Shown: positions 2,737 to 3,300 of the stretch, in pieces
Layout: every line of letters starts with the position of its first letter
Position numbering within the stretch: the first letter of the stretch is position 1
The notes under the pieces: generated by a model
Database searches by the model: none
What the model was told of the DNA's origin: nothing
The model's input: only the letters and a program-made list of their open reading frames with translations
Translations under genes and position numbers: made by a program
Sequence record: PQ352352.2
DNA: 64,000 bases
Origin: Escherichia phage vB_EcoM_PTE-Eco15
Reading direction: 5' to 3' (one strand)

Positions 2737-3226
2737 CTTGACTAGTGAAATGAAGGTCAAAATTGCTGATACAGCAAGATACTCTTTAAAACAAAATCCG
2801 AATCAGGATAAGGCAGAAGTTATCGAAAGATGCCGTATCGCTGTGTACGCAGAGTTTTTTGTAGCAGATTGGCTAAGCGGATATGTCAATAAAGGCCAAG
2901 AGGATGTTAATGACCCGTATACATACGCATGGGATGTATTGGCGCATCCAAGATACTGCGGGCTTCGTGTAGAAGTTAAGACACACCAAACTGACTCACG
3001 TTGGATTTCTGTAACAACAGGATGCAGCGGAGAGTATCCATACGGTTCTGGAATAAATCTAGGGCCCATTCTAAATCATCAAGTCGCTGACTGTATAATT
3101 ATATTCAACACTAAAGAAATTCATTCAGGTGTCATCCAGTACACTCCGAAGTTCATCGGTGACAGAGAAGACCTTCGTAAGGTTGTAAGAAAAAGCAACT
3201 ACAACGGATGGTATCTTTCCATTTAA
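2669..3226 (+). CDS. denB: endonuclease IV (DenB); start uncertain (2669 or 2750)
   Basis: 185-aa ORF matching the remembered size of T4 DenB; position between rIIB and ndd; overlaps upstream ORF by 68 nt if 2669 is used. Confidence 0.6.
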   Translation: MQKTNPGLQRLFQIPTFTLSNSDLTSEMKVKIADTARYSLKQNPNQDKAEVIERCRIAVYAEFFVADWLSGYVNKGQEDVNDPYTYAWDVLAHPRYCGLRVEVKTHQTDSRWISVTTGCSGEYPYGSGINLGPILNHQVADCIIIFNTKEIHSGVIQYTPKFIGDREDLRKVVRKSNYNGWYLSI

Positions 3227-3242
3227 AAATTTTCACAAAACG

Positions 3243-3272
3243 GTTTACATACCACAAGGACCGTGGTACTAT
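3243..3272 (+). promoter_or_regulatory. sigma70-type early promoter (-35 GTTTAC, 18-nt spacer, TGgTACTAT -10)
   Basis: GTTTAC at 3243-3248, extended -10 at 3264-3272, A/T-rich upstream; ORF starts 3301. Confidence 0.5.
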
Positions 3273-3300
3273 ATAACTATCAACTACGGAGGAGCGGAAA

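Follow-up and report, generated by a model that had tools for sequence, protein, structure and literature searches.

Three intergenic regions in the 64,000-nucleotide stretch of phage DNA analysed here (the window) carry the same short sequence blocks ahead of an open reading frame, which raises the question of what these repeats are and how they came to be nearly identical. In alignment, the window is a Tequatrovirus genome collinear with T4 positions 1219-1 and then 168903-106239 on the reverse strand, at 85-98% identity, so its plus strand is the early-transcription strand; the phage is a relative of T4, about 85-98% identical, and not T4 itself. Copy 1 of the repeat lies between denB (2669-3226) and an 87-codon open reading frame (ORF87, 3301-3564), copy 2 between motA.1 (6685-6834, just 3' of gene 52) and motA (6965-7600), and copy 3 between gene 32 (22546-23451) and frd.3 (23597-23824). 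The best overall explanation, and one that we hold to be very probable, is that all three sites belong to a single multi-copy subfamily of early promoters of the T4 type, recognised by host sigma-70 RNA polymerase. Judged by their sequence, the repeats are ordinary, well-described T4-type early promoters, two of them joined to the terminator of the preceding gene, and as such are already known.

A scan of the window placed block A, TTCACAAAACGGTTTACA, exactly at 3232-3249, 6883-6900 and 23513-23530, with no further match on either strand at up to three mismatches, and block B, TGGTACTATAYAACTATC, exactly at 3264-3281, 6915-6932 and 23545-23562. Shuffled sequence gave mean counts of 0.17 for block A and 0.13 for block B, expectations that count matches with up to three mismatches. 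The first-pass annotation had proposed a cassette in three copies at these sites, and each block does occur exactly three times in the window. Every copy runs in the same order, from an A/T run through TTCACAAAACGGTTTACA and a variable stretch to TGGTACTATA(C/T)AACTATC and then to a downstream ATG, which falls 19-34 nt past block B. The spans first drawn around the copies begin at the stop codon or terminator tail on the upstream side and end one base short of that ATG (at 3301, 6965 and 23597). The 18-nt spacer that had been described between the two quoted strings has to be corrected to a gap of 14 nt in every copy; between hexamers, the spacing is 17 nt from TTTACA to TACTAT and becomes 18 nt only with the -35 element read as GTTTAC. 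When the copies are aligned, this 14-nt stretch between the blocks differs completely among the three.

Conservation had also been said to extend well beyond the hexamers, into both the UP element and the transcribed leader. It does extend into the UP region and the flank of the -35 element, mostly as the consensus of the promoter class, but in the leader only positions +1 to +3 are common to all three copies and the remainder differs, with copies 1 and 2 both carrying ATCAACTAC (+1 to +9). Outside the hexamers the three copies are 53-60% identical to one another, compared with roughly 25-45% to most other early promoters in the window. The promoter at 3750, the neighbour of copy 1, is a close relative of the three.

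Several other differences from T4 were recorded across the window. Differences in gene content were located at 25372-25775, 29534-30469, 31351-31405, 32080-32081 and 2460-2654; relative to T4, the window has an extra 115-aa open reading frame between frd and td, 937 nt more in the nrdA region, about 55 nt in place of T4 mobE and nrdB.1 (about 700 nt), about 600 nt of T4 missing at the nrdB intron (I-TevIII) and 195 nt more upstream of denB. At 24231-24275, homology to T4 ends about 5 nt past the predicted start of an early promoter (GTTTAC at 24231), with about 88 nt in T4 at this break versus 4 in the window. The tail-fibre tip region at 11075-12023 (the distal end of gene 37, and gene 38) is strongly diverged from T4, with homology gaps and an 85% identical segment, which is typical host-range variation. 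Between rIIB and denB, a palindromic GC hairpin at 2373-2388, AAGGGCTTCGGCCCTT, has a terminator score on both strands.

Promoter architecture and the three leaders

With +1 set as the A 7 nt after TACTAT, and thus predicted from the position of the -10 element, transcription would start at 3279, 6930 and 23560. Each copy has ACAAAA at -44 to -39, GTTTACA at -36 to -30, a 17-nt spacer counted from TTTACA, an extended -10 element with TGG at -15 to -13 and TACTAT at -12 to -7, a T at -1 and an A at the predicted +1. Further upstream, the distal UP subsite is matched at 8/11 positions in copy 1, 11/11 in copy 2 and 10/11 in copy 3, and the proximal subsite at only 4/8.

On the plus strand, the UP-like region, block A and -35 element of copy 1 occupy 3222-3249. 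Its AT-rich part (3222-3232) belongs to a 5' region that overlaps the denB stop codon (3224-3226), and block A (3232-3249) includes GTTTAC at 3243-3248 and TTTACA at 3244-3249. Block B (3264-3281) holds the TGn at 3264-3266, TACTAT at 3267-3272 and the predicted +1 A at 3279, and the 22-nt leader (3279-3300), ATCAACTACGGAGGAGCGGAAA, leads to the ORF87 start at 3301. The motA early promoter, copy 2, spans 6873-6932 on the plus strand, with the UP-like sequence AATTTTTTTTT matching at 11/11 positions, block A at 6883-6900, TTTACA at 6895-6900, and block B (6915-6932) with TACTAT at 6918-6923 after the 17-nt spacer and the predicted +1 A at 6930. Its 35-nt leader (6930-6964) has GGAGATTAGAA at 6953-6963, just ahead of the motA ATG at 6965. 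The frd.3 early promoter, copy 3, spans 23503-23562 on the plus strand, with the UP-like CAAAAATTTTT at 10/11, block A at 23513-23530, the -35 element at 23525-23530, and block B (23545-23562) with the -10 element at 23548-23553 and the predicted +1 A at 23560. The 37-nt frd.3 leader (23560-23596) has a GAGG Shine-Dalgarno sequence before the ATG at 23597.

T4 early promoters have been described as 'uber' UP/-35/TGn/-10 promoters with extra consensus regions (PMC2988021), and a comparative study assigned to them GTTTAC at -36 to -31, an A-rich -40 to -44 and GT-rich sequence 5' of -12 (PMC1524935). All three copies have GTTTAC at -36 to -31 with 17-18 nt to the -10 element (GTTTAC-18-TACTAT), an A-rich -40 to -44 with an AT-rich UP-like region upstream, a TGn, GT-rich sequence 5' of -12, and a -10 element with A at -11 and T at -7, and all lie 5' of an early gene in the same orientation (the ORF87/ndd cluster, motA and frd.3, all on the plus strand). 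With every sequence feature of the T4 early class present, the original reading of the three copies as early promoters is supported. A generic sigma-70 scan returned 41 matches versus 41.1 expected and was uninformative in this AT-rich genome, so these class-specific features were used instead. A site for CRP or another regulator in block A was considered and rejected, a lone TCACA half-site being all that is present.

Likeness to the T4 early (Pe) promoters, that of motA included, covers GTTTAC, the A-rich -44 to -39, the AT-rich UP region, TGn, the TAnnAT -10 element and the position before an early gene. Nothing substantive sets the three apart from this class, except that the subfamily found in the window is tighter, shares extra bases and has at least six copies in T4. 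E. coli UP/extended -10 promoters (rrnB P1 type; T7 A1; lambda PL) likewise offer several contacts to the sigma-70 holoenzyme at once, and simultaneous UP, -35, TGn and -10 contacts serve to outcompete other promoters (PMC2988021). In contrast to those promoters, the -35 element here is GTTTAC and not TTGACA, the -10 element is TACTAT, and the family is phage-specific and is tied in the literature to Alt-modified polymerase.

In the mechanism that we propose, polymerase would contact together the AT-rich UP region (through the alpha C-terminal domains), the T4-specific -35 element GTTTAC(A), a 17-bp spacer, TGn and TACTAT, and would start at an A 7 nt further on. Because several contacts are offered, unmodified or Alt-modified host polymerase should be able to fire right after DNA injection, without phage protein synthesis. 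In this way the three copies would start transcripts for ORF87 with the ndd cluster, for motA, whose product activates middle transcription, and for frd.3-frd-td.

Early activity of the three copies is carried over from the T4 literature and would be expected by analogy. In T4, transcription and translation of motA begin at 1 min post-infection (PMC9697503), and another study names motA as a typical early transcript (bioRxiv 10.1101/2024.04.04.588121). The same study places frd.3 RNA among the most abundant NAD-capped RNAs of T4 and explains such RNAs by host RNA polymerase initiating at +1A promoters; its supplement is without TSS coordinates for frd.3 or motA (bioRxiv 10.1101/2024.04.04.588121).

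The first-pass annotation had also suggested examining the conserved leader for sites of RegB processing. GGAG, which marks RegB targets in the translation initiation regions of early genes where it is unpaired and runs into an A-rich RAYARAA, offers candidate sites in the leaders of copies 1 and 2, outside the conserved blocks, and is absent from the frd.3 leader of copy 3. Uzan and colleagues (1988, 1990) reportedly mapped the early promoter of motA as well as RegB cleavage within the Shine-Dalgarno sequence of this gene. The motA leader sequence GGAGATTAGAA agrees at 10/11 positions with the strong RegB site consensus GGAGRAYARAA (PMC3014915). In copy 1, two overlapping GGAG motifs (3288-3291 and 3291-3294), which could be a Shine-Dalgarno sequence or a weak RegB site, agree with this consensus at 8/11 positions each. 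A RegB site as part of the repeat was therefore rejected, with GGAG missing from copy 3 and lying outside the blocks; because the copies differ in GGAG, the RegB motif is a property of individual leaders and not of the repeat.

Terminators and the PeSL layout

Two of the copies had been placed immediately after strong terminators, following gene 52 and gene 32, and both hairpins were confirmed. The terminator before copy 2 (6839-6870, plus strand) has a 9-bp GC-rich hairpin at 6839-6860 followed by TTTTTTATTT, with a dG of -18.6 kcal/mol and a z of -5.4; what it follows directly is the small open reading frame motA.1, which lies between gene 52 and the terminator. The gene 32 terminator (23474-23502, plus strand) has an 8-bp GC-rich hairpin at 23474-23492, also followed by TTTTTTATTT, with a dG of -15.2 kcal/mol. 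Across T4-like genomes, a terminator is conserved 3' of gene 32 (PMC1524935). At copies 2 and 3, the intrinsic terminator ahead of the promoter has a T-tail that merges into the UP region, giving a compact unit that may stop one transcript and then restart another. No upstream hairpin was found at copy 1, where the best fold has a dG of -4.2 kcal/mol and a z of -1.5.

The idea of terminator-promoter punctuation units is thus borne out for copies 2 and 3, and such a unit corresponds to a published cassette. Arbiol et al. (2010) named the PeSL (promoter-early stem-loop), consisting of a stem-loop, an AT tract, an early promoter, a Shine-Dalgarno sequence and an ATG (PMC2839356), and Comeau et al. 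(2014) extended it to the T4/PST pair with the promoter consensus TTTACW-N17-TAYWAT (PMC4122927). In both papers, the repeats are proposed to serve as linkers of shared homology through which small early genes are shuffled as modules, one such exchange lying in the ndd.4/ndd.5 region (PMC2839356, PMC4122927). Excision of mini-circles by recombination from one cassette to another is a further trait ascribed to PeSL cassettes. TTTACW-N17-TAYWAT, the AT-rich upstream tract and the downstream Shine-Dalgarno sequence and start codon are present in all three copies, and the repeats are tied to insertions, deletions and replacements among close relatives. The window copies resemble PeSL cassettes in their composite intergenic layout, their repetition across the genome and the gene insertions and swaps that adjoin them in relatives. 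They differ from the typical PeSL in that copies 2 and 3 stand beside the conserved motA and gene 32 and not in the most plastic regions, and copy 1, because its stem-loop is missing, amounts to an early promoter alone instead of a complete PeSL.

ORF87 (3301-3564, plus strand; phrog_2390, function unknown) is the first gene under copy 1 and is absent from T4. The leader of copy 1 (3279-3300) is 23/25 identical to the leader (3786-3807) of the promoter at 3750, and four IMG/VR relatives (L016, L024, L025 and L028) have a different, T4-like leader before the same ORF87. The copy 1 leader thus looks like the product of a local swap with the next early promoter (GTTTAC at 3750). In T4, the remnant of ORF87 is its last eight codons (MKIAEIEL), forming a mini-ORF that overlaps the ndd.6 start, and the endpoints of the T4 deletion are ATGAAA repeats. 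The break in T4 homology at 3290 had been considered as a promoter-mediated insertion or deletion, a candidate that was dropped when the IMG/VR relatives showed two events. As read from these comparisons, the two events are a leader swap in the lineage of the window and the loss of ORF87 in T4 between ATGAAA repeats, and the ORF87 difference is mainly a T4 deletion and not a crossover inside the promoter.

Relatives in T4 and probable exchange between copies

The three window sites have T4 orthologues ahead of ndd.6, motA and frd.3, and each orthologue has both blocks together with the spacer particular to its site, which differs by one base at most. Copy 2 departs from the T4 motA promoter in a single base of the spacer and in how long the upstream T-run is, being otherwise identical, and copy 3 matches its T4 site in both blocks and in the spacer. 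The T4 records NC_000866 and AF158101 have no promoter annotated at these sites, their tables holding coding sequences alone, and one database record annotates a 'terminator' and a 'predicted early promoter' at the motA site. A whole-genome scan of T4 for block A with at most one mismatch together with an exact block B found six copies, at 167086, 163673, 146875, 70696, 55384 and 27080, and these copies lie upstream of ndd.6, motA, frd.3, e.8, nrdC.10 and imm.1. Two further T4 sites have a near-exact block B only, and all other T4 early promoters are at least three mismatches away from block A. Because the scan gives six such copies, the three window copies are part of a discrete subfamily and not a private triplet. 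A 79-nt core query matched 3397 places in 540 phage records, about 6 per genome, and all 540 records are Tequatrovirus-type phages of Escherichia, Shigella, Yersinia and relatives.

To separate the subfamily from its class, a class consensus was taken as the majority bases of the 28 T4 early promoters that do not belong to it. At defined positions, the match of the subfamily to this consensus is 13/16 in block A and 12/14 in block B, so what is conserved beyond the hexamers is for the most part the extended consensus already known for the class. Bases specific to the subfamily are AAAACGG adjoining the -35 element, where the consensus has AAAGTTG, and TACTATACAAC. The window also has a second near-identical pair of early promoters, at 34203-34260 and 47566-47623 (GTTTACaagtccctcgtgttgtgtTAYAGT..cttactgacataacatgagga), with 68% identity outside the hexamers. 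The T4 orthologues of this pair are at 136336 (upstream of alc) and 123093 (the alt.-2/alt.-3 region), and the pair is probably what the first-pass annotation had called its first cassette.

Apparent traces of exchange are present both within T4 and among its relatives. In T4, the nrdC.10 copy (55384) has the terminator tail and 14-nt spacer of the frd.3 copy together with the leader of the ndd.6 and imm.1 copies, and one leader is common to the e.8 and motA copies. The IMG/VR comparison covered 20 loci carrying the cassette. At the frd.3 locus, L009 and L013 agree with the window in terminator and frd.3 leader and have otherwise orthologous flanks, but the T4 e.8-type spacer tccttgtccttcca stands in place of agcataaagcttta, which suggests conversion between paralogous promoters. 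In L019 (IMGVR_UViG_3300045988_128797, 1233-1700), an open reading frame of roughly 75 codons is inserted between the motA.1 terminator-promoter and motA, with an early promoter at either edge of the insertion and CTATCAAATAAATGAACTGAAAC at the start of both leaders; L022 has extra open reading frames after its nrdC.10 copy. The swapped spacers and leaders and the inserted open reading frames in these relatives fit what the PeSL model predicts. At copies 2 and 3, alignment found no insertion or deletion relative to T4 and the flanking genes are conserved, so these two sites give no evident sign of a role in recombination in this genome. Each site has its own spacer, conserved between the window and T4, which argues that exchange is occasional and that homogenisation of whole cassettes is infrequent.

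Proposed sources of the near-identity and biological meaning

We infer from these comparisons that the near-identity of the blocks would have two sources, selection for the extended T4 early-promoter consensus and homologous exchange, by gene conversion or crossover, that occasionally joins paralogous copies; this exchange would also make the cassettes preferred junctions for the gain, loss and swap of small early genes. Purely functional convergence, in which each copy was optimised independently for polymerase contacts with no exchange and no part in genome shuffling, accommodates the agreement of the subfamily at 25/30 positions where other T4 early promoters have a majority base, as well as 14-nt spacers that differ among copies yet are conserved between orthologues. 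We nevertheless consider it unlikely, as the subfamily is discrete in block A, with 0-1 mismatches among members against at least three for all others, and its members share private non-consensus bases (AAAACGG against AAAGTTG; TACTATACAAC), and convergence leaves unexplained the spacer and leader swaps between loci in T4 and relatives. That the blocks are a chance repeat or a non-functional remnant of duplication deserves practically no credence: the AT-richness of the region is the one point in its favour, against two 18-mers in three exact copies each where 0.13-0.17 were expected at up to three mismatches, a fixed spacing and orientation with every copy just 5' of an open reading frame, and orthologous sites kept in hundreds of phages.

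The private bases admit one further reading, in which they are the binding site of an extra factor or tune the response to polymerase modification (Alt ADP-ribosylation), making the roughly six promoters a separately regulated subclass; we rate this as quite improbable. [quoted passage not shown] The blocks contain no inverted or direct repeat of the regulator type, however, with the single TCACA half-site as the only CRP-like feature, and the genes driven have unrelated functions. It is likewise a long shot that the private bases of the 6-8 copies per genome (AAAACGG, and TACTATACAACTATC across the -10 element, discriminator and start) mark a distinct subclass of early promoters. Such a subclass might be the subset stimulated by Alt-ADP-ribosylated polymerase or a subset prone to NAD-capped initiation, the support for this being the private bases themselves, and if real it would co-regulate motA, frd.3, imm.1, nrdC.10, e.8 and the ndd cluster.

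A multi-copy subfamily of T4-type early promoters, shaped by selection for the class consensus and probably by occasional exchange, accordingly remains our preferred reading. It carries little weight as a discovery, and what is gained is the correct annotation of three intergenic regions in this genome, together with fresh spacer and leader swaps and cassette-bounded insertions that add examples consistent with the published PeSL model. As T4-type early promoters, the three copies would drive the first wave of phage gene expression, including that of motA, the switch to middle transcription, and the terminator-promoter units are thought to be linkers that let T4-like phages swap small accessory genes.
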